Origin: Bacteroidota bacterium
GTDB lineage: Bacteria; Bacteroidota; Rhodothermia; Rhodothermales; Rubricoccaceae
Direction: 5' to 3'
DNA length: 54,258 nucleotides
Assembly (NCBI GenBank): GCA_039178415.1
Contig: JBCDFF010000001.1
Coordinates: 1 to 54,258, forward strand
Shown here: positions 39,013-54,258 of the stretch, piece after piece
How the letters are laid out: the number at the start of each line of letters is the position of its first letter
Position numbering within the stretch: position 1 is the first letter of the stretch
Program-made: the position numbers and the translations under genes
The notes under the pieces: generated by a model
Told to the model about the DNA's origin: nothing
Database searches by the model: none
Seen by the model: only the letters and a program-made list of their open reading frames with translations

Positions 39013-41397
39013 ATGCAGACTCCTGAGCCAGGCCGCGAGCGCGGCGCTTCCTCTGGGGGGTACTCGTACACTCCCTCGCCGACCAAGAACAAGCAGTTGG
39101 AGCAGATCCTGGATATGCTCTACCGGCGTCGGATGATTATCATCGCGGCGCTCGTCCTCGTCACGACCGGGGCCTTGGTCTACAGCTTTATGACGGAGCC
39201 GGAGTACAAGACCGGCTCCCTAATTATGCTAGAGCTGAACCGCGCCCCGAGCGGAGGAAGCGGTGCCGAGACCGAGACGCCGTTCATCCGCAGCGACCGC
39301 ACGATCCTGACGGAACTCTTCATCCTCCAGAACGACCAGGACATCCACCGCCGGGTCTACGAGCGGCTGAAGGAAATGAACGAGTCGGACCCGACCGTCA
39401 GCTACCCGCCCGAAGGGCAGGTGGTCTTCACCCCAGCCAGTCGATCGCTGGACAACGCGCTCCAGGTGACGTCGGTCAGCACGAGCCCGAGGGAGGCGGC
39501 TCGGCTGGCCAACATCTACGCAGAGGAATACGTCCGGCAGACCCAGGACGTGAGCCGGAACTACCTCGACCAGACGTACGGCTTCCTGAAGCAGCAGGAG
39601 GAGCAGCGCCTGGAAGAACTGCGCGTCGCAGAAGAAGAGGCGCAGCGATTCACGGAAGCGAACCAAGCGGCAGGCCTCACGCAGTCCGGCGAGGCTGTGG
39701 TGGCACAGATCGCCAGCCTGGAAGCGCAGCGCGAAGCCGCCGAGCTAGACCGCCAGATGAAGCTCGCGCAGATGGCAACGACCGAGGACGCGCTCAACGA
39801 GATCAGCCCCCAGTTGGCTGACCGCATGTCCTCTGAGACAGACCGCGAGCTGGCCGCGCTGCAGCAGCAGATCGCAAGCCTGGAGGGGCAGCGGCAGACC
39901 ATTCTCGGCTACGAGACCAGCCAGGGAACGGGGACGGAAGAAGCACAGGAACGCCGCGCTGCCGACCTCGAAGGCATCGACCGGCGTCTGCAGGCGGCGC
40001 GGGCCGAGGTGCGCGAGCTTTCGGAGACCTACGTGGAAGAAGTCCTCGCAGCCGGCGGCATCGACCAGGGGCAGGGTGCTGTGAGCTATGCGGCGGAGCT
40101 TCGCCGCCAGATGACGACAGACAACATCACGCTCGACGGTCTCAATGCCCGCATCAACCTGATGAACACGCGCATCCGGGAGATGGAGGGCGACCTGAGC
40201 CAGATTCCCGGGCAGTCGACGGAGTTTGCCCGGCTGCAGCGCCAGCGCCAGCAGGCAGAGCAGATGTACCAGTTCGTCGTGGAGCGCCTCCAGGAGACGG
40301 AGATTGCGCAGCAGTCCGAGCCAGGCTACGCCCGCATCCTGCGCGAGGCACCCGTGCCCAGAGTGCCCGACGGCCCGAGCCGGTGGAACACGATAGCGAT
40401 GGGCCTGCTGCTGGGCCTTGCGCTCGGTACCGGCCTGGCCTTCGCCCGCGACAAGCTCGACAACCGCATCTACAAGCCGGACCAGCTCCGCGACCGCGAC
40501 CAGAACGTCATCGGGGTCATCCCGAACATGGAGCCGCACATCAAGCAGGTCTACGACGGCGCGCTCTTCACGGAGTTCAACGGGAACGACGTGTCGACGA
40601 GCCTGACGACAGCGCTCGACCCGCTCTCGGCAGCCTCGGAGGCGTACCGGCACCTCCGCACCGCTGTCCAGTTCAGCCGCCCCGGCGTGATGGTGCAGAC
40701 GCTCCTGGTGACGAGCGCGGCCCCCTCGGAGGGCAAGTCCACGACAGCGGCCAACCTCGCGCTGACGATGGCGCAGGCCAAGCGCCGGACGCTGCTCATC
40801 GATGCCGACATCCGGCGGCCCAAGCAGCACACCCTCCTCGGGCGCCCGCTGGAGCCGGGTCTCGTGCAGGTGCTCCTCGACGGTGAGCAGTCCCTGCAAG
40901 CGTTCCAGACCTCGCTCGACGAGAACCTCTACGTCATGCCGGCCGGCGGCCTGCTGGACAACGGCGTCGAGGACGAAGCGTTCACCGGGGGCATCGACCC
41001 CACGCTCGTGGAGAGCCCCTCGGAACTGCTCGGGTCGAAGCGCATGCGCGACGTGCTCGAGATGCTGCGCGGCCAGTTCGACATCATCATCATCGACACG
41101 CCGCCGGTCTTGGCCGCCACCGAGCCGGTGCTACTCTCGACCCAGGCCGATGCGACGATCATCGTGGCCGCCGCCGGCAAGACGAAGGAGGGCGACCTCG
41201 ACCATAGCCTCGAGCGCCTCTCGGACGTCGGCGCGCATGTCATCGGGACGATGCTCAACCGGTTCGACCTGTCGCTGGCCTACGGCTACAAGTACAGCTA
41301 CGGGGTTTACGGACCGTACTCCAAGTACAGCTACGGTCCAGGAGAGCAGACAATCGAGCCCTGGTGGAAGCCGTCGCGCTGGTCCCACAAAGCCTAG
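39013..41397 (+). CDS. Polysaccharide co-polymerase / BY-type tyrosine autokinase (Wzc/GumC-like)
   Basis: N-terminal Wzz-like TM and a long coiled-coil periplasmic region. C-terminal kinase with Walker A SAAPSEGKSTTAANLA and Walker B IIIDTPPVLA. Terminal Tyr cluster YGYKYSYGVYGPYSKYSYGPG. Confidence 0.9.
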   Translation: MQTPEPGRERGASSGGYSYTPSPTKNKQLEQILDMLYRRRMIIIAALVLVTTGALVYSFMTEPEYKTGSLIMLELNRAPSGGSGAETETPFIRSDRTILTELFILQNDQDIHRRVYERLKEMNESDPTVSYPPEGQVVFTPASRSLDNALQVTSVSTSPREAARLANIYAEEYVRQTQDVSRNYLDQTYGFLKQQEEQRLEELRVAEEEAQRFTEANQAAGLTQSGEAVVAQIASLEAQREAAELDRQMKLAQMATTEDALNEISPQLADRMSSETDRELAALQQQIASLEGQRQTILGYETSQGTGTEEAQERRAADLEGIDRRLQAARAEVRELSETYVEEVLAAGGIDQGQGAVSYAAELRRQMTTDNITLDGLNARINLMNTRIREMEGDLSQIPGQSTEFARLQRQRQQAEQMYQFVVERLQETEIAQQSEPGYARILREAPVPRVPDGPSRWNTIAMGLLLGLALGTGLAFARDKLDNRIYKPDQLRDRDQNVIGVIPNMEPHIKQVYDGALFTEFNGNDVSTSLTTALDPLSAASEAYRHLRTAVQFSRPGVMVQTLLVTSAAPSEGKSTTAANLALTMAQAKRRTLLIDADIRRPKQHTLLGRPLEPGLVQVLLDGEQSLQAFQTSLDENLYVMPAGGLLDNGVEDEAFTGGIDPTLVESPSELLGSKRMRDVLEMLRGQFDIIIIDTPPVLAATEPVLLSTQADATIIVAAAGKTKEGDLDHSLERLSDVGAHVIGTMLNRFDLSLAYGYKYSYGVYGPYSKYSYGPGEQTIEPWWKPSRWSHKA

Positions 41398-41528
41398 GGC
41401 ATTATATTGCCAGCCCTCTGAATCGCTAGTCCGATTCCCGCTGTGCGCCGTGCGTGAGGCCTCGGAGGCCGCGCGCGGCGCACAGAGCGTACCGGCCCCC
41501 TCAGCTCTGCCTTCTACTCGCTAAGCGC

Positions 41529-42032
41529 ATGAGACGCCTCGCTCTTCCGTTCGCCACCGCCGCTCTGATCGCACTCGCCTCTCTTCCGGTACAGGCACAG
41601 CAGACTCCTGTGGCCGTGGGCGGGGTGCGCTACACGGTCTTCCATCTGCCGGGAGAGGCTACCAAGGAAGTCGTGCTGATGGGAGATCAGCAGAGCGGGA
41701 TCTATGTCATCGGAGAGACGATCACGCTGGACAAGTTCTTGGCCCTCACGGGTCTCTCCTTTTTCGAGCGTGAAACGGAAAGAGTAGAGATCAGGAAGAC
41801 GGTACGCGTGTTCCGCGAGCAAGGAGGCGAGCGCGTCGCCGTCTACGAAGCGCGGACGGAGGAGATGCTGGTCCAGTCCGAGGCCTATCCGACCCTCCAG
41901 GACAGAGATATCATTGCGATCGAGACGCAGTCGCTCAGGGGATTTGACTACCGGCAGGTGCTCCAGACAGTCTCCCAGCTAGCCACCTTGACGCTGCTCG
42001 GACTTCGCCTCTACGACGCGTTCAACAACTGA
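41529..42032 (+). CDS. Small secreted protein with SLBB-like beta-grasp pattern (Wza-related fragment?)
   Basis: Signal peptide MRRLALPFATAALIALASLPVQAQ. VVLMGDQQSGIYVIGETITLDKFLALTG and TLQDRDIIAI resemble SLBB motifs. No Poly_export domain is evident. Confidence 0.35.
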   Translation: MRRLALPFATAALIALASLPVQAQQTPVAVGGVRYTVFHLPGEATKEVVLMGDQQSGIYVIGETITLDKFLALTGLSFFERETERVEIRKTVRVFREQGGERVAVYEARTEEMLVQSEAYPTLQDRDIIAIETQSLRGFDYRQVLQTVSQLATLTLLGLRLYDAFNN

Positions 42033-42086
42033 CCGGCAGGCTGTCCAGCCGAGAGCTGCGGTGGAGGTCAGAACAGTGTCTAAGCC

Positions 42087-42098
42087 ATGAAATTTCAT
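42087..42098. promoter_or_regulatory. Perfect AT-rich 12-bp palindrome ATGAAATTTCAT in the intergenic region upstream of the WecA-like gene
   Basis: Read directly. Stands out in a GC-rich intergenic region. No known operator assigned. Confidence 0.2.
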
Positions 42099-42413
42099 CG
42101 TACGATAATGGCCCGTCCCGAGCGTCGGTGTCGTATATAGCACCAGGTGCGAGCATTACCCGCACGTCTCGCCGGTCTCCTGTATCTCCAAACAGTGCGC
42201 CAGTACCGCCGAGGCACGGCGGCGCTGAGCGCACCCGCCGGGCACTGAAGAACAGAGCAAGAATATGGGCCTCAGTAATTACAGGTCCTCGCGTCCATCC
42301 ACAAAGGGCACGATTCCGGTACTACTCCACACCGATCTCGCGCAGCCCAACACGGAGCCGGCCTCGCACCTGACGGACAGCCGCTCTAGGCAGAAACTCA
42401 CCCACGCGGTCCT

Positions 42414-43679
42414 ATGGAGTATTCGGTACTAATCATCCTGATCACGGGCTTCTTCGTCGCCTTCGGTACGACAGGACTGCTGACACCGATCGTGCGCCGC
42501 CTCGCCATCGAGCGGGACTGGGTTGACCACCCGGATGGACACCGTAAGCTCCACACGACCATTGTTCCGGCCGTCGGCGGCATCGCTATCGCCATCGGTT
42601 TTGCCGTAGGGCTGGCGTACCTGCATGCCGTCCGGGACCTGCTGAACTTCGATGTCCAGTTCCCGTCGAGCGCGCTGTGGATAGGAGCCCTCGTCATCGT
42701 AGCGTCGGGCTTCTACGACGACACACGCGGGCTGGGCTTCAAGGGTAAGTTCGCCGTGCAGGTGCTGGTGGCCTATGCCCTGCTCCATGCAGGCTACCGG
42801 ATCGACGTGACGGGGCTGCCGTTCGTGGGAGAGGACCCATACACCCACGCGCTGATCTCGATGCCGCTGACGCTGCTCTGGGTCGTGGGGGTCATCAACG
42901 CGGTCAACCTGCTCGACGGGCTCGACGGGCTCGCGGCCGGCGTTTCGCTCATCGCGTTTGCCTCGCTGGGCCTCATCTTCGGGATGGGCGGCGAACTGGG
43001 GCTGGTCTTGATCGCGCTCATCATCACCGGGGCGCTCGCCGGGTTCTTGCTCTTCAACTTCAACCCGGCCTCCATCTTCATGGGAGACTCCGGGAGCCTC
43101 TTCCTGGGCTACCTGCTGGCGACGTACACCCTCTCCGGCCCGGGGCATGCCGATCCGTGGCTGGCCCTGCTCATCCCGGCTGTGGTGCTCGGCCTTCCGC
43201 TGATCGACACGGCGCTCTCGATCGCGCGCCGCTTCGCGGGACGCCAGGCGATCTTTGCGCCGGACCGCGACCACATCCACCACCGCCTCACGCGGACGTT
43301 CACGCATCGCCAGGCCGTTCTGGTGCTCTACGCGGTTGCGCTCTCGTTCGGCGTGGCGGCCGTGGCGATGAGCATGATGGCAGCCGTCTACAGCGTCGGC
43401 ATAATCGCTGTCATGCTGGTGCTGACCGGTGTAGGTCTGAACAGGCTCAAGTACCTACGCCGCAGCTACGTCGAGCCAGACGTGCATTCCATCGGTGGAT
43501 TCTTGGAGCGCGAGGAGGAGCCCGCTTCTGCACCGTTCGAGGCGGCGGACGCGCGCGACGAGGACGTGCTGGCGGAACCGGTGGCGGCTGGCACGGGCAA
43601 CGGCAGGGTGCACGACGGGCACGGTACCGAGCGAGCCGGCTCGAGGTCGGATTTCAACATGTCGGGTGCTACATCCTGA
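42414..43679 (+). CDS. wecA: Undecaprenyl-phosphate HexNAc-1-phosphate transferase (WecA/TagO, MraY-like GT4 family)
   Basis: VDHPDGHRKLH, FYDDTRGL, NAVNLLDGLDGLAAG and NFNPASIFMGDSGSLFLGY are the conserved WecA/MraY-family motifs. Confidence 0.85.
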   Translation: MEYSVLIILITGFFVAFGTTGLLTPIVRRLAIERDWVDHPDGHRKLHTTIVPAVGGIAIAIGFAVGLAYLHAVRDLLNFDVQFPSSALWIGALVIVASGFYDDTRGLGFKGKFAVQVLVAYALLHAGYRIDVTGLPFVGEDPYTHALISMPLTLLWVVGVINAVNLLDGLDGLAAGVSLIAFASLGLIFGMGGELGLVLIALIITGALAGFLLFNFNPASIFMGDSGSLFLGYLLATYTLSGPGHADPWLALLIPAVVLGLPLIDTALSIARRFAGRQAIFAPDRDHIHHRLTRTFTHRQAVLVLYAVALSFGVAAVAMSMMAAVYSVGIIAVMLVLTGVGLNRLKYLRRSYVEPDVHSIGGFLEREEEPASAPFEAADARDEDVLAEPVAAGTGNGRVHDGHGTERAGSRSDFNMSGATS

Positions 43680-43836: not shown

Positions 43837-44127
43837 ATGATCACAGAGCAATCGACCATTGCCGTAACTCAAGGCCTGACGGCTGCCGACCTCGGCGGAG
43901 AAGCCGTTGTGCTGGACCCTAACTCAGGCCGTTACTACGGCCTCAACGAGTTGGGCGCGCGGATATTCGACCTCGCGAGGAAGCCGCGCTCGGTGGAGTG
44001 GATCATGGAAGCGCTGCTCCAGGAGTACGACGTGGAAGAGCGCAAACTAAAGGAAGATCTGTTGGCCTTCTTGCACGAGATGGAGCAGCGTCAACTCATC
44101 GAGGTCACCGATGGACCTGCTGCGTAA
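43837..44127 (+). CDS. PqqD-family RiPP recognition element (lasso peptide B1)
   Basis: About 96 aa. AADLGGEAVVLDPNSGRYYGLNELGARIFDL...LLQEYDV....L..DLLAFLHEMEQRQLIEV is the PqqD/RRE pattern. Overlaps B2 by 17 nt. Alternative GTG start at 43825. Confidence 0.8.
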   Translation: MITEQSTIAVTQGLTAADLGGEAVVLDPNSGRYYGLNELGARIFDLARKPRSVEWIMEALLQEYDVEERKLKEDLLAFLHEMEQRQLIEVTDGPAA

Positions 44128-44557
44128 GTTCGCCGGCCGCACCTGGGCCGACAAGCGGCTCCTGCTGCGCTCGCTCGCTCTCGTGGTGGGGGTGCGGGCT
44201 GGCCTCTGGGTGTTGCCGTACCGTACGGTTCAGCGTCTGGTTGAAGCAAAGCCGGGCCCCGTGCCCCCCGTAAGCACGCGGGACGGGGCTCCCTACCAGC
44301 GGCGCGTCGTAGCCGCCGTAGAATCTGTGGGGCGGCGGCTGCTCGGCGACAAGCCATGCCTAGTCCAAGCGCTCGTGGCGCAGCGGTTGCTGCGGCAGGG
44401 CGGGTACGAGACCTCGCTGCACCTCGGAGTCGCTAAAGACGGGCGGAAGCTCCTCGCGCACGCGTGGCTCGAACGCGACGGCTACGTGGTGATTGGCGGC
44501 GGACGATCGCAGTTTCAGTACACGCCGCTCAGCCCGGTCGGGCCGGACGCCGCGTGA
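44111..44557 (+). CDS. Lasso peptide leader protease B2 (transglutaminase-like Cys protease)
   Basis: KPCLVQALVAQRLLRQGGYETSLHLGV......LLAHAWLERDGYVVIG shows the Cys...His-containing McjB C-terminal-like motif. Its stop overlaps the cyclase GTG (GTGA). Confidence 0.8.
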   Translation: MDLLRKFAGRTWADKRLLLRSLALVVGVRAGLWVLPYRTVQRLVEAKPGPVPPVSTRDGAPYQRRVVAAVESVGRRLLGDKPCLVQALVAQRLLRQGGYETSLHLGVAKDGRKLLAHAWLERDGYVVIGGGRSQFQYTPLSPVGPDAA

Positions 44558-46677
44558 GTGCTGTTGCCGGGCTATACCATCTGAACGGTCAGGGCGCGGA
44601 CCAGGACGCGCTGCGCCGCATGGTTGATGCGATGCCGCACTGCGGGCCGGACGGTGCCGAGGTGTGGAGCCGGGGACCGGTAGGCCTCGGGCACCGGATG
44701 CTCCACACGACGCCTGAGTCGCTGCACGAAGTCCTACCGCTGGCGAACGCCGCCGGCACGCTCGCAGTCACTGCCGACGCCCGGATCGACAACCGGGCCG
44801 AACTGCTGGAGCAACTGCATCTCGGCGACAGCGAAGAATCAGTCACGGACAGCGCGCTCATCCTCGCGGCCTACGAGACCTGGGGCGAGCAGTGCCTCGA
44901 TCACCTCGTCGGCGACTTCGCCTTCGCCATTTGGGACGAGGCGGCGCAGCACCTCTTCTGCGCGCGCGACCACTTTGGTGTCCGGCCGTTCTACTATCAT
45001 CACCGGGCGGGCCGGCATTTCGCGTTCGGTACTGAGATCAAGGCGCTGCTTGCCGTCCCCGGCGTGCCGCAGCGGCTCAACGAGGTGCGCCTCGCGGACT
45101 TTCTCGCCACGATGCGGGAGGACCCGGAGAACACGATCTACCAGGAGGTCTTCCGGCTGCCTGCCGCACACGCGCTCGTTGTCTCGCCCGATGCGCTGCG
45201 GGTCTGGCGCTACTACACCCTCGCCCCAGCGACCGATGTTCCGCCGGACGCCTCCGACGCGGAGTACGAAGCGCGCTTCCGGGAGCTGTTCACCCAGGCC
45301 GTTCGCGCTCGGCTCCGCAGCGCATTTCCCGTCGGCTCCGAGTTGAGCGGCGGCATGGACTCCTCGTCGATCACGGCAGTCGCAGGGCAGATCATGGCGG
45401 ACGAGGGGAAGCCGCTCCACACGGTCTCGCTGGTCTACGACGACATCGAGGCGTGCGACGAGAGCCCCTTCATCAACGCCGTACTGGAGCAGGAGGGCGA
45501 CTTCGTTCCACACTTCGTCAAGGGCGACCGGCTCGGCCCGCTCTCCAACCTGGACGACGTGTACACGTATCTCGACGACGGCCTCGCCAGCGGCAACCAG
45601 CACCTGGTCTGGGCGGCGAAAGCCGCCGCGGGCGATGCCGGGATCCGCGTGCTGCTCGACGGCCTCGACGGCGACAACGTGGTGGGGCATGGGTTGCTCT
45701 ACCTCAAGGAGCTCGCCGAGACAGGCGACTGGGAGGCGTTCGCGCGCGAGAGCAAAGCGGCGGCGCGGCAGTTCCAACGCACCGAGCAGCGCCACAACTT
45801 CGAGGACAGCTTCGCTAGCCTCGACACCGCCTTCAACCGCTTCGGCCTGGCGCGCCTCCAGACCCTGGCCGACGAAAGCCGTTGGGGGGCGTTCTTCAAG
45901 GAGCTGGCGGCTGCCGAGCGGCTCTTCGGGGTGAAGCGCTCGGACGTGCTGCGGCTCCTGTGGCGGCGGCTCGTGCAGCCGGCGGCGCTTCTGCGCGCGC
46001 GCGACGCCCGGCGGAACGACAGCAACAATGCGGCGCGCCCCAAGCCGCTGCTTCCGCTCCTCGACCCGGACTTTGCCGAGCGTATCGGGATGGCCGAGCG
46101 TCTGCAGCGCTTCGAGGACCAGAAGCCAAACCTGACGACGGTACGGGACGTGCAGCGCCAGCTCCTGAACGGCTCGCGGATCCAGACGGCGCTCGAACTC
46201 ACGACGCATGCGAGCGCGGCCCACGGGATCGAGATCCGGCACCCCTTCTTCGACAAGCGGCTCGTCGAGTTCTGCCTCGCGCTGCCGCCGGGGCAGAGCC
46301 TGAAAGACGGGTGGACCCGGTCCATCCTGCGCCGCGCGCTCGGCGGCATCCTGCCGGAGAAGGTGCAGTGGCGCGTCGGCAAGGCGTGGCTCGCGCCGAA
46401 CTTCGAGCGCGGGCTCTACGAGCAGGACCGGGCACTGCTTGACGAGCACGTCGCGGACCTCGGCCCGCTGCGCCCATACGTGGACAAGAGCGTAGTCGAT
46501 GGCCTCTACCGCAGGGGAAAAGACGTTCCCAATATCGAGCAGGCACAGCTCGCTCGCATCACCACGCTCTCGTTCTGGCTGAAGAAGCGCTTCCCGACCT
46601 TAACGGAAGGTGAGACGCTGGCCTCGTCCGGCGGGTGCGACGGCGACCGCGGAGCCACGGTGCCTCAGGGGCCGTAG
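44554..46677 (+). CDS. Lasso peptide cyclase (asparagine-synthetase-like, McjC type)
   Basis: AsnB-like throughout (SELSGGMDSSSI PP-loop), but the N-terminus is (V)SAVAGLYHL, with Ser where AsnB has the glutaminase Cys2, as in lasso cyclases. Flanked by B2 and the precursor. Confidence 0.85.
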   Translation: MSAVAGLYHLNGQGADQDALRRMVDAMPHCGPDGAEVWSRGPVGLGHRMLHTTPESLHEVLPLANAAGTLAVTADARIDNRAELLEQLHLGDSEESVTDSALILAAYETWGEQCLDHLVGDFAFAIWDEAAQHLFCARDHFGVRPFYYHHRAGRHFAFGTEIKALLAVPGVPQRLNEVRLADFLATMREDPENTIYQEVFRLPAAHALVVSPDALRVWRYYTLAPATDVPPDASDAEYEARFRELFTQAVRARLRSAFPVGSELSGGMDSSSITAVAGQIMADEGKPLHTVSLVYDDIEACDESPFINAVLEQEGDFVPHFVKGDRLGPLSNLDDVYTYLDDGLASGNQHLVWAAKAAAGDAGIRVLLDGLDGDNVVGHGLLYLKELAETGDWEAFARESKAAARQFQRTEQRHNFEDSFASLDTAFNRFGLARLQTLADESRWGAFFKELAAAERLFGVKRSDVLRLLWRRLVQPAALLRARDARRNDSNNAARPKPLLPLLDPDFAERIGMAERLQRFEDQKPNLTTVRDVQRQLLNGSRIQTALELTTHASAAHGIEIRHPFFDKRLVEFCLALPPGQSLKDGWTRSILRRALGGILPEKVQWRVGKAWLAPNFERGLYEQDRALLDEHVADLGPLRPYVDKSVVDGLYRRGKDVPNIEQAQLARITTLSFWLKKRFPTLTEGETLASSGGCDGDRGATVPQGP

Positions 46678-46791
46678 CCATAAGGTGGCTCGGGGCCTTT
46701 GGCACAGTACGTGATGCCGGGCTATGTTCTGCCCTGCGGGCTTCCGCTTCGCAGACCTTCACCGTCCCCATTCACCAAGCGGTACTTCACC

Positions 46792-46980
46792 ATGAAGACC
46801 TACAGCGCACCCATGCTCACCGAGTACGGCGACGTGGCCGCGATCACGGCGACGCTGGGCGACCCCTTCACGGGCGACCAGTCGTTCGACGTGGACGGCA
46901 ACGTGATCGAGGAAGGACTCAACTCGATCAACCAGTGCCCGACGCTCGAGTTCGAGACGTGCCACTTCGAGAACCCGTAG
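46792..46980 (+). CDS. Lasso peptide precursor (62 aa)
   Basis: MKTYSAPMLTEYGDVAAITATLGDPFTGDQSFDVDGNVIEEGLNSINQCPTLEFETCHFENP. The leader fits YxxPxLx3Gx5Tx exactly (Y4,P7,L9,G13,T19). A Gly-x5-Asp (GDPFTGD) macrolactam candidate follows. Located immediately after the cyclase gene. Confidence 0.7.
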   Translation: MKTYSAPMLTEYGDVAAITATLGDPFTGDQSFDVDGNVIEEGLNSINQCPTLEFETCHFENP

Positions 46981-47016
46981 CAACGGCTACGGCACTCGGT
47001 TGCAATGCACGACACG

Positions 47017-47052
47017 GCGAAGGCTCCAGGGACTCTTCCCCGGAGCCTTCGC
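47017..47052 (+). terminator. Strong stem-loop 37 nt downstream of the precursor stop (attenuator / mRNA-stabilising hairpin candidate)
   Basis: gcgaaggctcc (47017-47027) pairs perfectly with ggagccttcgc (47042-47052), with extra ggg/ccc pairing inside. No U-tract follows. Confidence 0.45.
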
Positions 47053-47130
47053 TAAAGTGAGGCGTTTGGGCCTCGCGTATCCACCCGTTTCATCCCCAGG
47101 GTCCCGCCGCCTGAAGCTCGCCTCCACCTC

Positions 47131-48045
47131 ATGCACCGTTACAAGGCTTTCGGACTTTCGATCCACTCAGACATCGCGCTCTCCGGTTTCGCCCCGGGCA
47201 GCAGCCTGCCGGACATTACGATCCAGAAGGGCGACCTGCGCGTGCGGAAGACGGCACCGGGCGCGCGGCACGGGAACGTCGTCTCGGGGCACATCAAAGA
47301 GGACCACTGGGACCTGGACCTCCTCTTCCACATCCAGGGCGGCGAGGTGGTCACCTACGACACGCTGAAGCCGCTCTCCGAGGACCTGCTCCGCAGCTTC
47401 GTGCAGGGCGCGCTCCTGGCCGCCGTCCTGCGGCAGCGGCACCTCCTCGTGCTTCACGGCTCGGCGGTCTCCGACGGCGAGCAGGCCATCGCCTTCCTCG
47501 GCAACTCCGGCTGGGGCAAGTCCACGCTCGCCGAATACTTCTGCCAGCGTGGGTACGAACTCATCACCGACGACGTGATGGTGGTCGTCCCCGGCACTGA
47601 GGCCGAGCCGGCGCGCATCCCCCCGGGCGTCAAGCAGGTCCGCCTCCGCCCCCATTCCGCTGAGCGGCTTGTCGAGGACTACGAGAGCCTCCCGCTGGTC
47701 ACTGAGGTCTCGGCCAAGCGCCTGCGCGTTCTAAAGGGCGAGGAGGTGCGGTCGATACCCCTGTCGAAGCTGTACATTCTGCAGCGGCAGACGGCCGACG
47801 CGAACCGCATCACGCCGCTGGACCCGCAGCAGGTCCCGCTTCACTGCGTCGCCCACACGCACGCCACCAACTGGATCACCGACCCTGAGTACGTCTCGGA
47901 GCACTTCAGGCAGTGCGCCCAACTCGCCAAGCACACGCCGGTCGCCCTCCTGGAGCGTATCCTGTCGCTCGACGCGCTCCCGGATATCTACGACCTCGTC
48001 ACGGCCGACGTCGACGAGCTCTCCGCGAGTGAGCAGCCCACCTAA
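47131..48045 (+). CDS. HPr-kinase-like serine kinase associated with lasso clusters
   Basis: LVLHGSAVSDGEQAIAFLGNSGWGKSTLAEYFCQRGYELITDD matches the HprK C-terminal P-loop domain pattern seen in lasso-associated kinases (PadeK/ThcoK type). Confidence 0.7.
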   Translation: MHRYKAFGLSIHSDIALSGFAPGSSLPDITIQKGDLRVRKTAPGARHGNVVSGHIKEDHWDLDLLFHIQGGEVVTYDTLKPLSEDLLRSFVQGALLAAVLRQRHLLVLHGSAVSDGEQAIAFLGNSGWGKSTLAEYFCQRGYELITDDVMVVVPGTEAEPARIPPGVKQVRLRPHSAERLVEDYESLPLVTEVSAKRLRVLKGEEVRSIPLSKLYILQRQTADANRITPLDPQQVPLHCVAHTHATNWITDPEYVSEHFRQCAQLAKHTPVALLERILSLDALPDIYDLVTADVDELSASEQPT

Positions 48046-48056
48046 GCAGTCCCCCG

Positions 48057-49991
48057 ATGACAGCAGCGCAAACGTGGCGGCACAGAGCCGATGACCTGAA
48101 GCTGCGGGCCTCCTACGTGCGGATGGCCCTCCGGCTGATCTGGTCGGCGGCGAGCACCTGGACGGTGCTATGGTTCGCGCTGCTCGCGGTGCAGGGCACC
48201 CTCCCGGCGGCGGTCGTCTACCTCACGAAGTGGCTCGTCGACAGCCTCGCCGCAGCGGTGGCCGGAGAGGTCGGCCTCGGCGCGGTGATCGCGCCGGCCG
48301 CACTGATGGGCGGCATCATGATCCTCCAGCGCGTCCTCGGCGGGATCAACGAGTGGGTCTCGACGGCCCAGGCCGAACTCGTCGGGGACCGGGTGAAGGA
48401 GCTCGTCCACGAGAAGGCGACCGAGGTGGACTTCGGGTTCTACGAGTCGGCGGACTACCACGACAAGCTGGAGCAGGTCAACTCGCAGGCCAACAGCCGC
48501 GTGCTCCAGCTCCTCAAGAACATCGGCGGGCTGCTGCAGGCGGCTGTGACGCTGCTCTCGATCTCGGCGATCCTGCTCAGCTACAGCCTGTGGCTCCCGC
48601 TCGTGCTCATCGTGAGCACGCTGCCCGCGTTCTTCGTCGTCGTGCGGCACAACAAGAAGTACCACGCGTGGTGGAAGGGGTCGACCGCCCGCCGCCGCCT
48701 CGCGCAGTACTTCGACCTCATGGTGACCTTCGACGCCTCGGCGGCCGAGGTGCGGATCAACAACACGGGCACCTACTTCCGCACGCGCTACATGGCGCTG
48801 CGCAAGGCGCTGCGCGAGGAGCGGCTCGACCTCCTCAAGCGGCAGGTGCTGGCGCGGCTCTTCGCTACGTTCCTCGGCCTCCTCGCCACCGCCGGCGCGA
48901 TGCTCTGGGTGGTGCTCCGGGCGACGCGCGGCGCGGCCACGCTCGGCGACCTCGCTCTCTTTTACCAGGCGTTCAATCAGGGCCAGGCACTCGTCGGCGG
49001 GCTGCTCCAGAACATGGGGCAGATCTACACCAACACGCTCTTCCTAGAGCACCTCTTCGATTTCCTCGACCAGGAGAACGCCCTCGAAGAATCCGAGGCA
49101 CCGACGCCGTTCCCGGCCCGGATCGACGAAGGGGTCCGGTTCGAAGACGTTTCCTTCAGCTATCCCGGTTTCGAGCGGAAGGCCCTCGAAGGGTTCAGCC
49201 TTACGATCCCGGCCGGCAAGATCGTCGCCATCGTCGGCGAGAACGGGGCGGGCAAGAGCACGTTCATCAAGCTCCTCTGCCGGTTCTACGACCCGACGGC
49301 CGGGCGCATCACAGTCGACGGGACCGACCTCCGCGACTTCGCGCAGGCGGACCTCCGCCGCCACGTCTCGGTGATGTTCCAGGTGCCGATGAAGTACCAG
49401 ATGACGGCCGAGCAGAACATCCGCCTCGGCGACCTCGCCCGCGAGACGGGCCGCGACGCGGTCCAGGCGGCGGCGGTCGGCGGCGGGGCGCACGAGGTGA
49501 TCCAGAAGCTGCCGCAGACCTACGACCAGGTGCTCGGGCGCTGGTTCGAGACGGGGAGCGAACTGAGCGGGGGCGAGTGGCAGCGCGTGGCGCTCTCGCG
49601 GGCGTTTTTCCGCGAGGCCCCCATCGTCGTCCTCGACGAGCCGACGAGTTCGATGGACTCGTGGGCCGAGAACGAGTGGCTGGCACGGTTCCGACGGATG
49701 GTCGAGGGCCGAACGGCGCTGCTGATCACGCACCGCTTCACAACCGCGATGCAGGCCGACGTCATCCACGTCATGGACGCTGGCCAGGTCGTCGAGACGG
49801 GCACGCACGACCAACTGCTGGCCCTCGGCGGGCGCTACGCGGCGTCGTGGCGCGCCCAGATGCGGCAGGAGGAAGGCACGGTCGAGTCGATCGCGGGCGA
49901 GTCCGTCCTCGGCGACGGCCTCGCGGGGGAGGAAGCCGCCGGCGTGCATCCGACCCTCGACGCGGACGCGGAGCCGCCCTCGGTGCGATGA
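48057..49991 (+). CDS. Fused TMD-NBD ABC exporter (McjD-like lasso exporter/immunity)
   Basis: Six N-terminal hydrophobic segments. Walker A GENGAGKST, signature LSGGEWQR, Walker B IVVLDEPTS. Confidence 0.9.
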   Translation: MTAAQTWRHRADDLKLRASYVRMALRLIWSAASTWTVLWFALLAVQGTLPAAVVYLTKWLVDSLAAAVAGEVGLGAVIAPAALMGGIMILQRVLGGINEWVSTAQAELVGDRVKELVHEKATEVDFGFYESADYHDKLEQVNSQANSRVLQLLKNIGGLLQAAVTLLSISAILLSYSLWLPLVLIVSTLPAFFVVVRHNKKYHAWWKGSTARRRLAQYFDLMVTFDASAAEVRINNTGTYFRTRYMALRKALREERLDLLKRQVLARLFATFLGLLATAGAMLWVVLRATRGAATLGDLALFYQAFNQGQALVGGLLQNMGQIYTNTLFLEHLFDFLDQENALEESEAPTPFPARIDEGVRFEDVSFSYPGFERKALEGFSLTIPAGKIVAIVGENGAGKSTFIKLLCRFYDPTAGRITVDGTDLRDFAQADLRRHVSVMFQVPMKYQMTAEQNIRLGDLARETGRDAVQAAAVGGGAHEVIQKLPQTYDQVLGRWFETGSELSGGEWQRVALSRAFFREAPIVVLDEPTSSMDSWAENEWLARFRRMVEGRTALLITHRFTTAMQADVIHVMDAGQVVETGTHDQLLALGGRYAASWRAQMRQEEGTVESIAGESVLGDGLAGEEAAGVHPTLDADAEPPSVR

Positions 49992-50590
49992 GACTCCCGC
50001 AGTGGCTCGCCTACGGACTCGCCCCCGCCGTCCTCGTGCTCGGCGTGGCCCTCCAGCGCTACAACGTGGCGGTCCACGACCAGACGAAGTGGACCGGCGG
50101 CGGCTTCGCTATGTTCTCGACGGTCGACGTGCCGGGCGCGCGCGCGCTCCGCGCCTACGTGGTCACGGACCAGGGCGAGGCGCTCGCGGTCGAGCCCGAC
50201 TACGGCATCGAGCGGCGGCTCGTCTACACCCAGCCTAAGCAGGAGCGTCTCCACGCCGTAGCCCAGCACCTCGCCGCCCAGACCTGGCGCGTCTACGATG
50301 CCTCGACGTACCTGGAGGTCTGGCCGTCGCTCCCGGACTTTCTCCAGCGCTACTTCCAGCGCTCCGACGCCTGGCAGGCTGCCTGGACAGACTCGGCTTC
50401 CACCGAGGGTCTCTACCCCGGCCACCTCGCCTTCGCTGCACGCCGCGCGCCGTACAACGGGCGCCCGGCAGAGGTCGCGATCACCGGTGCCCGCGTCGAG
50501 GTCTGGAAGCCCGTCTTCGACCCCGACGCCGAGGAGCTCAGCTGGCAGCGGATCGCCGAGGCTACGGCGCAGACGGCCTCGGCCGAGTAA
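49988..50590 (+). CDS. Small N-terminally anchored protein (possible SdpA/DUF5819-like), copy 2
   Basis: The ATG at 49988-49990 overlaps the ABC exporter TGA (49989-49991). MRLPQWLAYGLAPAVLVLGVAL is a TM helix. The KWTGGGFAMFSTVD motif is shared with 4914-5585. The N-terminal 606 codons of ORF 48170-50590 are an out-of-frame shadow of the ABC gene. Confidence 0.5.
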   Translation: MRLPQWLAYGLAPAVLVLGVALQRYNVAVHDQTKWTGGGFAMFSTVDVPGARALRAYVVTDQGEALAVEPDYGIERRLVYTQPKQERLHAVAQHLAAQTWRVYDASTYLEVWPSLPDFLQRYFQRSDAWQAAWTDSASTEGLYPGHLAFAARRAPYNGRPAEVAITGARVEVWKPVFDPDAEELSWQRIAEATAQTASAE

Positions 50591-50596
50591 GTACGC

Positions 50597-51508
50597 ATGG
50601 ACGCGTCCGCCCAAACGCCCACCGTGTCACCCCCGCCCGAAGGCGGCCTGCGCGCCCTCGTCCGGCGTCCGGTCGACGCCCTCCTCCGGGCTGATCTCTT
50701 CGAGCTAGGCGCGGCGATGACGCTCCTGATGATCGTGCTGTCGCTGCACGAGCCGTCGTGGCCGGTCAAGCTCGGGCTCGTGACGCTCACCGCGACGGCG
50801 CTCGTGCTGCGCCCGCTGATGCGGAACCCGCTGCTGTGGCTCGGCCTCGTCGGCGTCCTCGTGCTGGCCTACACCCAGACGTGGTACCAGCAGAACAACC
50901 ACGACTACCTCAAGCTCTACTGGTGCCTCGGCGTCGGGGTCTCGCTCCTCGCCGCCGAGCCGCTGCGGGCGGTGCGTGTCAACGCCCGCATTCTCATCGG
51001 GCTCTGCTTCCTGTTTGCGACCGTCTGGAAAGCCGTCTCGGTGGACTACATGAGCGGCGCGTTCTTCAACTACTTCCTCCTCCAGGACACGCGCTTCGAA
51101 CTCTTCGCCGACCACCTCGTCGGCCTCGACCCGAGCGTGCTGATGCAGGAACGTGCTGGCCGGGTGTTCTACACCGCGTTCGGCGATCCGGCGGGTGTGC
51201 TCGCCGTGCCGTTCGCGGCCGAAGCCCGGTGGCTCGGGGTTGCGATGACGTGGTGGACACTCCTCATCGAGGGGGCCGTAGCTCTGGCCTTTCTCCTCCC
51301 GGCGCGGTTCACCCTGGCGAAGTGGCGCGACGCCGTGCTCCTGGTGTTCATCTTCTCGACCTACTTCATCGCTCCCATCCTCTACTTCGCATGGCTCATC
51401 ACAGCGATGGGCCTGATCCAGTGCGAGCGGGAGACGTTCCGCTACGCTCCGGTCCTGTATGTGGCAGCCTTCGTGCTCGTCCTGATGCGGTTTTACCTTC
51501 CAGTATGA
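50597..51508 (+). CDS. Polytopic membrane protein, HTTM-like (vitamin K gamma-carboxylase/SdpB-like), copy 2
   Basis: QQNNHDYLKLYWCL, LFATVWKAVSVDYMSGAFF, MTWWTLLIEGAVALAFLL. Colinear with 3971-4903 over the whole length. Confidence 0.6.
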   Translation: MDASAQTPTVSPPPEGGLRALVRRPVDALLRADLFELGAAMTLLMIVLSLHEPSWPVKLGLVTLTATALVLRPLMRNPLLWLGLVGVLVLAYTQTWYQQNNHDYLKLYWCLGVGVSLLAAEPLRAVRVNARILIGLCFLFATVWKAVSVDYMSGAFFNYFLLQDTRFELFADHLVGLDPSVLMQERAGRVFYTAFGDPAGVLAVPFAAEARWLGVAMTWWTLLIEGAVALAFLLPARFTLAKWRDAVLLVFIFSTYFIAPILYFAWLITAMGLIQCERETFRYAPVLYVAAFVLVLMRFYLPV

Positions 51509-52671
51509 CGAACAACGCGGGGCTAGGTGCGGCTCCCCGACCGGCGCGGCGCGGAAGGCGGGTGGTGCGCCTCGGCCTGCGTGTGGCCGAGGTCGCACTC
51601 GTCGGCCTGCTCATCATGGCCTTCACGGCGGCCTACGTGCCCCCGGACACGCTCTGGTGGGGGCAGTTTGTCGCCATCTTCAGCGGCCTGCTGCTCGCCA
51701 TCGTCGCGGTCGTCGCAGCCATCGCTGCGGTCAAGCGGCAGTGGCGGCGGGCCGCGCTGCACGCCTCGCTCCTCACCGGTGCCCTGCTGATGCCCGCTCT
51801 CAGCGCCCGCCCTGACCCGGTCCCCGCCCCGCCCGACGCGCCGGGGCTGACCGTGATGACGTTCAACGCGAGCGTGCGGCACGCCGGCAGCGAGCAGGAC
51901 GCCCTCGCCGCCCTCCTGGCCCGCGACAAGCCCCACCTCATCGCGCTCCAGGAATTCTCCATCCGCCTGATCCGCGAAACGGGCGTCACGATGGGCGCGC
52001 CGCTGCTCGGGCCGCTGCTCAAGGACCGGGCGTACGAAGCGTCCTGGCCCGACACCGAGGGCAAGGACTACCTCTTCAGCCGTCCGATCTTCTCGCGCAT
52101 CCAGGCGCAGGAGCAGGGCGAGGTCCTGGCCGGCGACCCCCCGACAGGTCCTCGGTCCGGCGGACTGTGGTCCTCTGGCGGCATCACGCGCCGGCTCTAC
52201 CGGTGGGACGGCCGGACAATCGCCCTCTACAACGTGCACCTCCACTCGTTCAGCAGCCACCGCCCGTGGCGCGAGGCGGACGAGCGGTTTTCGCTCCGGG
52301 CCTGGGCGGACGCGCTCCAGGACTACCGCCGGGACTTCGAGGTGCGCGCCGAGCAGGCCCGCGTCCTGCGACGCCTCCTGGATGAGGAAGCGCATCCGTT
52401 CATCGTCTGCGGCGACTTCAACAGCACGCCTCGAAGCTGGGTCTACGCCTACCTCCAGCAGGGCCTCCGCGACGCGTTCCGGGAGGCCGGATCGGGATGG
52501 GGCGCTACGTTCCCCGCGCGCCTTCCGCTCATCCGCATAGACTATCTCCTCGTCAGCGATGCGTGGTCCGTGCGCCGGGCCTACGTAGACACCGGCCTGG
52601 CCTCCGACCACCGACCGGTCATCGCAGAGCTCGTGCTGCGGACGGAGCCGGAACCGACCGCGAACCGGTAG
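51505..52671 (+). CDS. Membrane-anchored endonuclease/exonuclease/phosphatase (EEP) family protein
   Basis: The ATG overlaps the HTTM gene stop (ATGA). There are 2-3 N-terminal TM helices. Then LTVMTFNA..., IALQEF, VCGDFNSTP and LASDHRPVIAEL, the EEP catalytic motifs. Confidence 0.75.
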   Translation: MTNNAGLGAAPRPARRGRRVVRLGLRVAEVALVGLLIMAFTAAYVPPDTLWWGQFVAIFSGLLLAIVAVVAAIAAVKRQWRRAALHASLLTGALLMPALSARPDPVPAPPDAPGLTVMTFNASVRHAGSEQDALAALLARDKPHLIALQEFSIRLIRETGVTMGAPLLGPLLKDRAYEASWPDTEGKDYLFSRPIFSRIQAQEQGEVLAGDPPTGPRSGGLWSSGGITRRLYRWDGRTIALYNVHLHSFSSHRPWREADERFSLRAWADALQDYRRDFEVRAEQARVLRRLLDEEAHPFIVCGDFNSTPRSWVYAYLQQGLRDAFREAGSGWGATFPARLPLIRIDYLLVSDAWSVRRAYVDTGLASDHRPVIAELVLRTEPEPTANR

Positions 52672-52861: not shown

Positions 52862-53989
52862 ATGGCGACCATACACCCCGACGAGGCCGGCGCACGACCA
52901 GAATACAAGGCCCTAGTGCTCTGCTGCCGGACCGAGCTGACGCCCGCACACGCCGACCACCTCGCGCGGTACCTGAGCGACGAGGATTTGCAGTGGAACT
53001 ACCTGGTCACGCTGGCCGGGTACCACGGGGTGCAGCCGCTGCTCTACTGCCACCTCCGGAGCATGGAAGAGCACTTGCTCTCTGAGAAGCACATGACGTG
53101 GCTGCGCGGCGTCGTCGGGGCACGCTCGGCTCACAGCCTGGTGCTGATGCAGGAGCTAGGCCGCCTAACCGAACTCTGTGCTCAGCAGCACCTCCCCATG
53201 CTCGCAGTGAAAGGGGCGGTCCTGGCCCAGAGTGTGTACGGCGGCGTTGCCCTCCGGCCCTTCGCAGACATCGACCTCGTGATCCGGCGCGAGGACTTTA
53301 CGCACCTGGAGACGCTGCTCCGGCAGCAGGGCTACGGATCCAGGAAGATGAGCCCGTTCCAGAAGACGAGCTACCTCTACATCAACGGCCAGTACACCTT
53401 CTGGCGGCGCATCCCGAGCCTGGGCGAAGCCGCCGCGTTCATCGACGTGCACACCGCCATCATGCCGCCGGGCTACGCCTACTCGGAAAACTTCGACGCA
53501 CTGACGGCGCGCTCCGTGACCGTGCCGGTTGCCGGACGCCAGGTGCCGACGCTCGGGCGCGAGGACCTGCTCCAGGTGATCTGCTACCACGGCTTCAAAA
53601 ACCGGTGGGACCGGTTCAAGTACATCTGCGACCTCGCCGAGCTGATCCGCGCGTCCCCGGACATGGACTGGGAAGCAGCGTACCACCGGATGCACGCGAT
53701 GCGCAGCCGGCGCGTACTCCGGCTGGGCCTGTTCCTCGCCTCCGCGCTGCTGGACGCTCCGCTGCCCAGGCAGGTCTGGGAGGACGTGCGGGAGGACCGC
53801 CGCGTCAGGGACATCGGGCACGCCATCATCGACCGGCTGCCCAGACAGGCCCACATCAAGGTGGAGCCCTACTGGGAGCGCGTGCGGCTCAACGTCTTGG
53901 CGCAGGACACAGTCGGGGGCGGGCTCCGGTACGGGGCGTATTCCGCCGCCCGCAAAGTGACCGACCTGTACCTGCCTGCAGGCGAGTAG
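52862..53989 (+). CDS. Uncharacterised nucleotidyltransferase family protein (NTP_transf_5-like)
   Basis: LAVKGAVLAQSVYGGVALRPFADIDLVIRREDFTHLETLLRQQGY is the hallmark block of this family, which is known to accompany kinase-containing lasso clusters. Confidence 0.6.
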   Translation: MATIHPDEAGARPEYKALVLCCRTELTPAHADHLARYLSDEDLQWNYLVTLAGYHGVQPLLYCHLRSMEEHLLSEKHMTWLRGVVGARSAHSLVLMQELGRLTELCAQQHLPMLAVKGAVLAQSVYGGVALRPFADIDLVIRREDFTHLETLLRQQGYGSRKMSPFQKTSYLYINGQYTFWRRIPSLGEAAAFIDVHTAIMPPGYAYSENFDALTARSVTVPVAGRQVPTLGREDLLQVICYHGFKNRWDRFKYICDLAELIRASPDMDWEAAYHRMHAMRSRRVLRLGLFLASALLDAPLPRQVWEDVREDRRVRDIGHAIIDRLPRQAHIKVEPYWERVRLNVLAQDTVGGGLRYGAYSAARKVTDLYLPAGE

Positions 53990-54011: not shown

Positions 54012-54258
54012 CTACTGCGGCGCGGGGCCGGACTGGCTCTGCTCCCACCGTATGGCGAACTGCAGGAGTTCGGTCACCGTCTCAAACCCCAGCTTCTCCT
54101 TCGCCCGGCGGCGGTATGTCTCGACCGTCTTCCGACTCAGGTTCAGGCGCTCGGCGATCTCCTCGGTCGGCTTGCCCTGGCCCAGCATCTGGAAGACCGC
54201 CATCTCGCGGTCGGTCAGGTCCTCCAGCCCCGGCGTCGACTCCCCGAGCCTGGCCGCG
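54012..54258 (-). CDS. LuxR/FixJ-type HTH regulator, C-terminal part (partial, continues beyond the right edge)
   Basis: LTDREMAVFQMLGQGKPTEEIAERLNLSRKTVETYRRRAKEKLG is the GerE/LuxR HTH. The reading frame stays open to position 54258. Confidence 0.8.
   Translation of the reverse strand, partial: AARLGESTPGLEDLTDREMAVFQMLGQGKPTEEIAERLNLSRKTVETYRRRAKEKLGFETVTELLQFAIRWEQSQSGPAPQ

Follow-up and report, generated by a model that had tools for sequence, protein, structure and literature searches.

The open reading frame (ORF) at 46792-46980 (+) of the window, which here means the whole 54,258-nucleotide stretch of contig JBCDFF010000001.1, is, judging from its sequence, a bona fide lasso peptide precursor. 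It appears to be one member of a widespread conserved family found in Rhodothermales and cyanobacteria, and not a singular oddity. We consider it probable, with appreciable reserve, that the peptide enters a split-B lasso pathway in which the whole C-terminal 42 residues are the functional core and the ring is closed between core residues T1 and D9.

The gene starts at ATG 46792, ends at TAG 46978-46980 and encodes MKTYSAPMLTEYGDVAAITATLGDPFTGDQSFDVDGNVIEEGLNSINQCPTLEFETCHFENP, a peptide of 62 amino acids (aa). A longer ORF with a TTG start at 46699 overlaps it; because all homologues begin MK(T)Y, ATG 46792 was taken as the start. The leader fits Y4-x2-P7-x-L9-x3-G13-x5-T19-A20 (YxxPxLx3Gx5Tx) exactly. 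The core is 42 aa long when counted from T21 and 40 aa when counted from G23; it contains four Asp and five Glu, no Lys or Arg, and ends in Pro. Its cysteines, Cys49 and Cys57, occupy core positions 29 and 37 in T1 numbering (27 and 35 in G1 numbering), and the ring contains no Cys. The initial annotation of this stretch had described the leader fit, the 40-42-aa core, its nine Asp/Glu without Lys or Arg, the Cys at 27 and 35 and the C-terminal Pro, and all of these were confirmed. When a six-frame translation of the window was searched with a relaxed leader pattern, the precursor was the only uninterrupted ORF matched, and the other match crossed stop codons.

The precursor scored 35.8 bits on the NCBIfam model NF033528 'lasso_cyano' (cut-off 33; residues 2-24) and 25.5 bits on NF033521 (cut-off 19), and no match for the peptide was found in Pfam. 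The gene lies in a co-directional cluster with the order B1-B2-C-A-K-D-U1-U2-EEP-N, in which A is the precursor gene, B1 and B2 the recognition protein and the leader peptidase, C the lasso cyclase, K an HPr-kinase-like protein, D an exporter, U1 and U2 membrane proteins, EEP an endonuclease/exonuclease/phosphatase-fold protein and N a nucleotidyltransferase; A stands between the cyclase gene and the HPr-kinase-like gene. The scores above cut-off and the neighboring NF033535 cyclase, NF033537 B2 and PqqD-type B1 uphold the lasso precursor identity proposed in the initial annotation. The lasso-class features present are a leader with YxxPxL and Thr(-2), adjacent B1, B2 and C genes, and an Asp acceptor at core position 7 or 9.

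Subsequently, homologues were collected. Among 5.8 billion proteins, a word-indexed search retrieved 31 full-length homologues of 58-79 aa at 65-87% identity; about 36 more distant small proteins came from a profile search over 1.8 billion representatives, and a second profile search contributed a few more. The profile search also returned large proteins of 362-1538 aa (P0035, P0059, P0060 and others), which were rejected as spurious hits to repeat proteins. The counts given below refer to 72 usable sequences, and a diverse alignment comprised 37 sequences with 27% mean column identity.

Core length across the 72 members ranged from 35 to 51 aa with a median of 42. Asp was present at core position 9 in 71 members and Gly at position 3 in 68. 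Two Cys were found in 66 members, four in 4 and none in 2; in 66 of the 72, as in the window precursor, both Cys lie C-terminal to the ring with none inside it. The first Cys occupies core position 29 in 60 of the sequences, and the two are separated by seven residues in 49 of 66. An S-x-[DN]-x-C motif (S-[IVL]-[DN]-x-C) occurs in 66/72 members, and a [DN]-x-[DNS]-G turn motif (D-x-[DN]-G) is kept across the family. On average a sequence carries 6.8 acidic and 0.8 basic residues. The second Cys is followed by 0-7 residues in the homologues, and Pro is the commonest C-terminus (42/72); other members end in G, L, R, C, A and further residues, and none of the 72 ends in Ser. In the 37-sequence alignment Y4, P7, T19 and D29 are invariant, and G13, G23, G36, S45, C49 and C57 are at least 90% conserved. 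The initial annotation had proposed looking for conservation of the long tail in related genomes; the tail and both Cys are indeed conserved over about 70 members, which argues against a dispensable follower.

Column entropies were computed within the Rhodothermales clade. They were 0.04 bits for the ring (aa 21-29), 1.07 bits for the leader (aa 1-20), 0.76 bits for the hairpin region described below (aa 30-42), 0.44 bits for aa 43-51, 2.15 bits between the Cys (aa 52-56) and 1.86 bits after the second Cys (aa 58-62). The low value of the ring against the high value between the Cys indicates a core built as a constant scaffold that bears a hypervariable loop between the Cys. All 37 diverse members match NF033528, many of them under the cut-off; hence, the family is the one behind NCBI's 'lasso_cyano' model. 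This model covers the leader and ring only, the matches ending at model positions 25-32 of 35, and the long conserved tail lies outside the published family definition. Since the family is already captured by NCBIfam (NF033528, and NF033535 for the cyclase), its detection is routine. Accordingly, the word 'atypical' used in the initial annotation holds in comparison with characterised lasso peptides but not within the family, where this length is the norm and is modelled by NCBIfam. One metagenomic protein of 133 aa, P0065, contains two consecutive leader-plus-short-core units, KKPYHTPKLTVYGNLPTIT[RG]TLGTQ..., and may represent a lasso precursor that was duplicated or fused, or else an artefact of gene calling over tandem genes.

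The genomic setting is conserved as well. The precursor was kept next to C and K (and B1/B2) in every related locus examined, so that a loss of this linkage, which the initial annotation had named as evidence against its reading, was not seen. The order C-A(n)-K-D was kept in at least 10 loci of several lineages, with cyclase identities of 41-85%, and also in Fischerella and Moorena; K follows A in every related locus, and C-A(n)-K-D was found wherever a locus had sufficient flank. Three Rhodothermales metagenome-assembled genomes have the gene order in full, the polysaccharide genes upstream included, and the divergent plasmid-like contig L006 has the same order with a cyclase 47% identical. 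Cyclase relatives with 44-47% identity are present in many cultured cyanobacteria under the NCBI name 'lasso peptide isopeptide bond-forming cyclase'. The Fischerella thermalis and Moorena clusters read B1-B2-C-A-K-D-N, and their precursors (70, 72 and 52 aa; core lengths 49, 51 and 31 aa) have T(-2), G3, D9 and a GS[IL]D motif; Fischerella has two Cys, and the Moorena core has none. The more distant cyclase loci of Gammaproteobacteria (L004, L005) were uninformative, as no precursor of this type was found in them.

The structure of the precursor was modelled with AlphaFold2 using the 37-sequence alignment. The mean predicted local distance difference test score (pLDDT) was 69.6, and that of the block at aa 30-42 was about 76. 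Strands were predicted at aa 29-32 and 38-42 around a conserved D-V-D-G-N turn, forming a beta-hairpin that starts at the ring acceptor. With medium confidence, this hairpin (aa 29-42) may be read as the lasso loop. An EF-hand/DxDxDG calcium site in FDVDGNVIEE was rejected, because the PROSITE EF-hand pattern fails in every register (Phe or Val at excluded positions); the motif seems better read as a D-G/N-G beta-turn, in agreement with the AlphaFold2 hairpin. Below the hairpin, G42, S45, [IVL]46, [DN]47 and the Cys pair are conserved.

K shows 29% identity to BsfK (E 3e-11), and its catalytic motif LHGSAV...GNSGWGKST...TDD is intact, aligning with H148/G163/G166/G168/K169/S170/D186/D187 of BsfK (motif from PMC10368454). 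BsfK of Bradymonas sediminis acts on an internal residue and is stimulated by B1 (PMC10368454). As K is co-conserved with A in every locus, a conserved phosphate acceptor is expected. The known phosphorylated lasso peptides are paeninodin and pseudomycoidin, modified on a C-terminal Ser, and the BsfA precursor, modified on Ser3 (PMC10368454); the present family has neither the C-terminal Ser of the paeninodin type nor the Ser3 of the Bsf type. Outside the Rhodothermales clade no hydroxyl residue except Ser45 (core Ser25) is nearly invariant, and for this reason Ser45 would be the best candidate for the kinase target.

We propose the following route, which, from the cleavage site to any biological activity of the product, is a prediction from comparison and modelling. 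B1 would bind the YxxPxL leader, and K, acting via the leader/B1 complex, would phosphorylate a core Ser, with Ser45 as the best candidate. B2 would cleave after Thr19-Ala20, and C would close a nine-residue ring by linking Thr21 (T1) through its amine to the Asp29 (D9) side chain. Residues 30-42 would then stand as a beta-hairpin loop above the ring, and the tail segment around LNSINQ would thread the ring and be held between the hairpin and a disulfide-closed loop. This nine-residue hypervariable loop, closed by Cys49 and Cys57, would act as a bulky stopper below the ring and/or as a specificity surface (class-IV-like). N, and possibly EEP, may decorate the phosphate further, by analogy with pseudomycoidin, whose precursor is phosphorylated and then receives a hexose on the phosphate with PsmN required (PMC6993621). 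D would export the very acidic product, in which the tail would presumably be retained, with or without modification.

Regarding the ring, the initial annotation had offered two registers, T1-D9 and G1-D7; the comparative evidence favours the former, and the latter is less supported. We regard the nine-residue T1-D9 register as quite likely. Thr19 is found in all family sequences aligned, and residue 21 is variable (T34, V15, I13, A4, Y2, L2, R1, Q1; F, I or S in cyanobacteria). Co-linearity with precursors of known cleavage site points the same way: the leader matches those of TbiA-alpha and TbiA-beta position by position, as seen in their complexes with the recognition protein (5v1v, 5v1u), and runs co-linear with the MS-271 precursor (8itg), whose alignment reads T-K followed by C1-L2-G3-...-D9. 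BsfA has the same Y(-17) spacing, and its B2 cleavage site was proven by mass spectrometry (PMC10368454). Furthermore, P0061, the one member in which a residue is deleted, would close a ring of 8 residues in the T1-D9 register and one of 6 in the other.

Several observations weigh against the T1-D9 route with its 42-residue core. In this register the first core residue is beta-branched (T/V/I, 62/72), which is unusual for lasso peptides, and [T/V/I]-[L/F]-G resembles a (-2)(-1)(+1) junction, with Gly23 94% conserved. Read in that way, B2 would cut after Thr21-Leu22 and the cyclase would join Gly23 (G1) to Asp29 (D7), giving a seven-residue ring and a 40-aa product, an outcome that is possible though improbable. 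Such a product would begin with Gly, the usual first core residue, which is present in 68/72 members; the T/V/I at residue 21 in 62/72 would match the accepted -2 residues (Thr, and Ile/Val in BsfA-type precursors; PMC10368454), and a passage of PMC13352647 cites huascopeptin as having a Gly1-Asp7 ring. However, the G1-D7 register requires Y(-19) and not the Y(-17) spacing of TbiA, MS-271 and BsfA, and it gives no reason for Thr19 to be invariant. Several members have F, S, Y, R, Q or A as residue 21, Gly23 is missing in four, and the ring of P0061 would have six residues, whereas the acceptors in the lasso literature consulted occur only at core 7-9.

The AlphaFold2 model is of medium confidence and cannot represent the isopeptide or threading, and the conservation of Ser45 may be structural rather than kinase-related. 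The ratios of nonsynonymous to synonymous substitution rates of the precursor ORF against L001-3 and L006 were 0.17-0.68, all below 1, and are weak evidence given the few differing sites. The family alignment shows no conserved aromatic or large plug residue in the tail. It is in keeping with this last point that the product might be branched-cyclic with an unthreaded tail, or be threaded only if phosphorylated or glycosylated, and would form no stable lasso alone; we find this rather doubtful, since the full B1/B2/C machinery is present and comes from curated lasso families, and the disulfide loop and the hairpin could act as stoppers. Two family members are Cys-less and the Moorena core has only 31 aa, so that the disulfide loop is not obligatory. 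That short relative without Cys and the variable length after the second Cys would also suit a long C-terminal region that docks K, N or C as a follower and is then trimmed to a mature lasso of about 20-25 aa, but this is quite unlikely: family scans revealed no protease besides B2 in the window cluster or in the other clusters checked, no peptidase domain was detected in exporter D with Pfam, both of which argue against programmed tail removal, and conservation extends to the second Cys, with a hypervariable loop framed by invariant Cys that resembles a displayed surface.

The T1-D9 product was then compared with known lasso peptides. Pandonodin (Pandoraea), a class IV peptide of 33 aa with an 18-aa tail and a tail-tail disulfide, is the longest characterised lasso (PMC13352647, 2026 review; bioRxiv 10.1101/2023.06.21.545946), and achromonodin-1 with 30 aa is the second-longest (PMC13352647). 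A product of 40-42 aa would exceed pandonodin, in line with the expectation of the initial annotation that this would be one of the longest lasso peptides. Solved lasso structures range from 14 to 33 aa and RODEO-derived predicted cores from 12 to 160 aa (PMC12214591); thus, long predicted cores are catalogued but uncharacterised. Like pandonodin, the window precursor has a long C-terminal tail carrying two Cys, here with a predicted disulfide; unlike pandonodin, which has 33 aa and a short loop, its core has 42 aa, with a hairpin of 13 residues predicted to lie between ring and Cys loop. A PDB profile search detected no sequence similarity of the two, and the K, N and EEP genes that mark the clusters of the present family could not be linked to pandonodin. 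The window core has exactly two Cys C-terminal to the ring, as class IV is defined, with the disulfide predicted. The predicted hairpin at aa 29-42 would be analogous to the loop of microcin J25. The latter has 21 aa, carries its beta-hairpin loop above a G1-E8 ring, has aromatic plugs, ends in a tail of 2 residues and is made with a fused B protein.

The cluster resembles those of paeninodin and pseudomycoidin (Firmicutes) in having an HPr-kinase-like K beside A, split B1/B2, C and D, and, as in pseudomycoidin, an NTP-transferase-fold N. In contrast to the C-terminal Ser acceptor of these two peptides, the last residue of the window peptide is Pro, and a Ser at the C-terminus is not conserved in the family. 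The paeninodin and pseudomycoidin cores are about half as long as the window core and have no Cys. The Bradymonas sediminis Bsf cluster is similar in content (A, B1, B2, C, D, K, N) and in the Y(-17)xxPxL spacing; in BsfA the -2 residue is Ile, the core has 21 aa, the ring is G1-D8 and Ser3 is phosphorylated, whereas the window peptide has Thr(-2), a 42-aa core, Gly3 and two Cys. As with MS-271/siamycin of class I, the leader aligns and the layout is T-x followed by X1-L2-G3-...-D9 with a nine-residue ring on Asp9 (8itg). The class I peptides have 21 aa and four Cys, with Cys1 and Cys7 in the ring and two ring-tail disulfides, whereas the window ring has no Cys and both Cys lie far downstream. 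In the literature we found no characterised member of the precursor family, no paper containing its core sequence strings, no paper linking lasso peptides to Rhodothermales or relatives, and no characterised cyanobacterial lasso peptide.

The features of the precursor and the cluster are listed in Table 1. B1 scored 69.6 bits on NF033536 lasso_PqqD_Bac, under the cut-off of 80, and aligns with BsfB1, including the Tyr proposed as the contact of Thr(-2). The cyclase ORF opens at GTG 44464, and the likely start is GTG 44554, which overlaps the B2 stop; the overlaps of B2 with B1 and with C suggest translational coupling. D is 57-92% identical in related loci. U1 and U2 gave no significant family match in Pfam or NCBIfam, U2 being 57% identical in L006, and both are absent from L008, L015, L016 and the cyanobacterial clusters. 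The EEP protein shows a weak VanJ-like match and is co-conserved with the cluster in L001-3, L006, L008 and L016; it might be a phosphodiesterase, an immunity protein or a tailoring enzyme. We know of no lasso cluster with a described role for an EEP-fold protein. N is present in L006, L008, L015, L016, L017 and L018.

Table 1 Predicted features of the lasso precursor and its gene cluster (window positions).
Feature	Position	Strand	Basis
B1, PqqD-type RiPP (ribosomally synthesized peptide with post-translational modifications) recognition element, leader-binding chaperone	43837..44127	+	Pfam PF05402, E 3.9e-18
B2, transglutaminase-like leader peptidase	44111..44557	+	NF033537 lasso_biosyn_B2 90.7 bits (cut-off 33); Pfam PF13471
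C, lasso cyclase	44554..46677	+	NF033535 lass_lactam_cya 764.6 bits (cut-off 525), aligned from ORF residue 32
Sigma-70-like promoter match TTGGCA-18-TATGTT, weak lead	46699..46728	+	consensus match only
Precursor leader, aa 1-20	46792..46851	+	Y(-17)xxP(-14)xL(-12)...T(-2)A(-1)
Core 1-9 TLGDPFTGD, predicted macrolactam ring closed between the T1 amine and the D9 side chain	46852..46878	+	D9/G3 conservation, entropy 0.04 bits
Core 10-22 QSFDVDGNVIEEG, predicted beta-hairpin, candidate lasso loop	46879..46917	+	AlphaFold2, conserved turn
Core 23-28 LNSINQ with Ser45 (core Ser25), candidate phosphorylation site	46918..46935	+	conservation; putative kinase target
Cys49...Cys57 (core 29-37), predicted disulfide-closed nine-residue loop, hypervariable interior	46936..46962	+	conservation, entropy
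Variable C-terminal extension HFENP and stop codon	46963..46980	+	homologue comparison
RNA stem-loop, intercistronic, A-K spacer just after precursor stop	47016..47053	+	folding and conservation
K, HPr-kinase-like lasso precursor kinase	47131..48045	+	weak matches to Hpr_kinase_C, HprK_rel_A/B
D, ATP-binding cassette (ABC) exporter (permease and ATPase)	48057..49991	+	PF00005, E 3e-32
U1, protein with single N-terminal membrane anchor	49988..50590	+	cluster-associated by conservation in L001-3, L006
U2, polytopic membrane protein	50597..51508	+	cluster-associated by conservation in L001-3, L006
EEP, membrane-anchored endonuclease/exonuclease/phosphatase-fold protein	51505..52671	+	PF03372, E 6.5e-20
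N, NTP_transf_5 nucleotidyltransferase-fold protein, annotation class of PsmN/BsfN	52862..53989	+	PF14907, E 4.6e-52

Two elements were noted in the spacers. The 114-nt C-A spacer contains one promoter-like match against 0.1 expected in shuffles, and its relevance for a Rhodothermales-type organism is uncertain. In the A-K spacer, a 101-nt stretch containing the stem-loop folds with -53 kcal/mol (z = -5.3 against shuffles); the stem is the best-conserved part of this spacer in four Rhodothermales genomes and has no T-run. Acting through stabilisation of the transcript or through attenuation, this element may set the ratio of precursor to enzymes. Just after the N gene, the C-terminal part of a LuxR/GerE helix-turn-helix regulator lies at 54012-54203 (-), cut by the window end. 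GerE-domain response regulators hold the same position in L006 and L015, and the regulator may control the cluster.

Polysaccharide and sugar-pathway genes adjoin such lasso clusters in six of the seven lineages with enough flank, including the plasmid-like contig and two cyanobacteria. Directly upstream of the window cluster are genes for a Wzz-type co-polymerase/kinase, a small exported protein and a GT4 phosphoglycosyl transferase. Overall, the neighboring sugar genes encode a Wzz/tyrosine-kinase co-polymerase, a GT4 phosphoglycosyl transferase, GT1, epimerases and a pyruvyl transferase; they are located at 39013-43679 (+) in the window, 2045-6214 in L006, 371-1627 in L016, 1283-5347 in L017, 1-2440 and 16154-17224 in L018, and 1-640 in L014. 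Their proximity may reflect sugar supply for glyco-modification or a functional link to the cell envelope. A second asparagine-synthase-family gene (599 aa, 35700-37499, -), found by Pfam scan only, lies in the upstream polysaccharide region and is probably an amidotransferase associated with the extracellular polysaccharide genes rather than a second lasso cyclase.

Several related loci contain more than one precursor. Four tandem precursors of 64, 58, 63 and 63 aa, differing mainly in the Cys loop and the C-terminal extension, occupy 9591-11164 of L006 (and occur in L007), and two-copy arrangements were seen in L008, L015 and L017. Rep3 and ParA genes adjoin the cluster in L006/L007, which suggests that the L006 contig is a plasmid; a tblastn search of the precursor against PLSDB plasmids gave no match. 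Among the metagenomic loci, L008 has the order C-A-A-K-D-EEP-N, L011 and L012 have C-A-K, L015 has A-A-K-D-N, and L016 has GT4-B1-B2-C-A-K-D-EEP-N. The C-A-A-K-D-EEP-N cluster of L008/L009 has no adjacent B1/B2 and carries an Fe-S protein gene upstream, and it brings to mind the cyanobacterial cluster lacking B that the pseudomycoidin paper mentions (PMC6993621). At L014 5316-9552 the cyclase is in several fragments and there are two K-like genes, and this cluster may be decaying or mis-assembled.

These features can be combined into a more far-reaching picture, which we offer as a long shot: a structurally new lasso type, a 'macro-lasso' of about 40-50 residues whose nine-residue ring would be trapped between the hairpin and the disulfide-closed hypervariable loop instead of by bulky side chains. 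An internal tail Ser would carry a phosphate-linked sugar, installed by K, N and possibly EEP with the neighboring sugar genes, and the Cys loop with its tandem copies would form a diversifiable recognition surface on a constant knotted scaffold.

Taken together, the sequence comparisons suggest that this family is new on the lasso theme, with cores of about 42 aa, a hairpin, a hypervariable disulfide loop and K, N and EEP partners, the chemistry of the product being predicted. Its size and possibly its locking mechanism would be surprising, yet the family would be an extension of a well-understood class of ribosomally synthesized peptides. A median core of 42 residues would extend the size range of the knotted lasso scaffold, for which characterised examples have 14-33 residues, and the family would be a test of how a tail that is long and partly folded is threaded by the cyclase. 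In place of bulky side chains, the disulfide loop or a phospho-sugar may serve as a stopper, and a third kind of kinase target site in lasso peptides could emerge, beyond the C-terminal Ser and the ring Ser3. The constant ring with its hypervariable Cys-framed loop is attractive for peptide engineering and display. As relatives occur in the cultured cyanobacteria Fischerella and Moorena, the family is experimentally accessible although the Rhodothermales-like organism of the window is uncultured.

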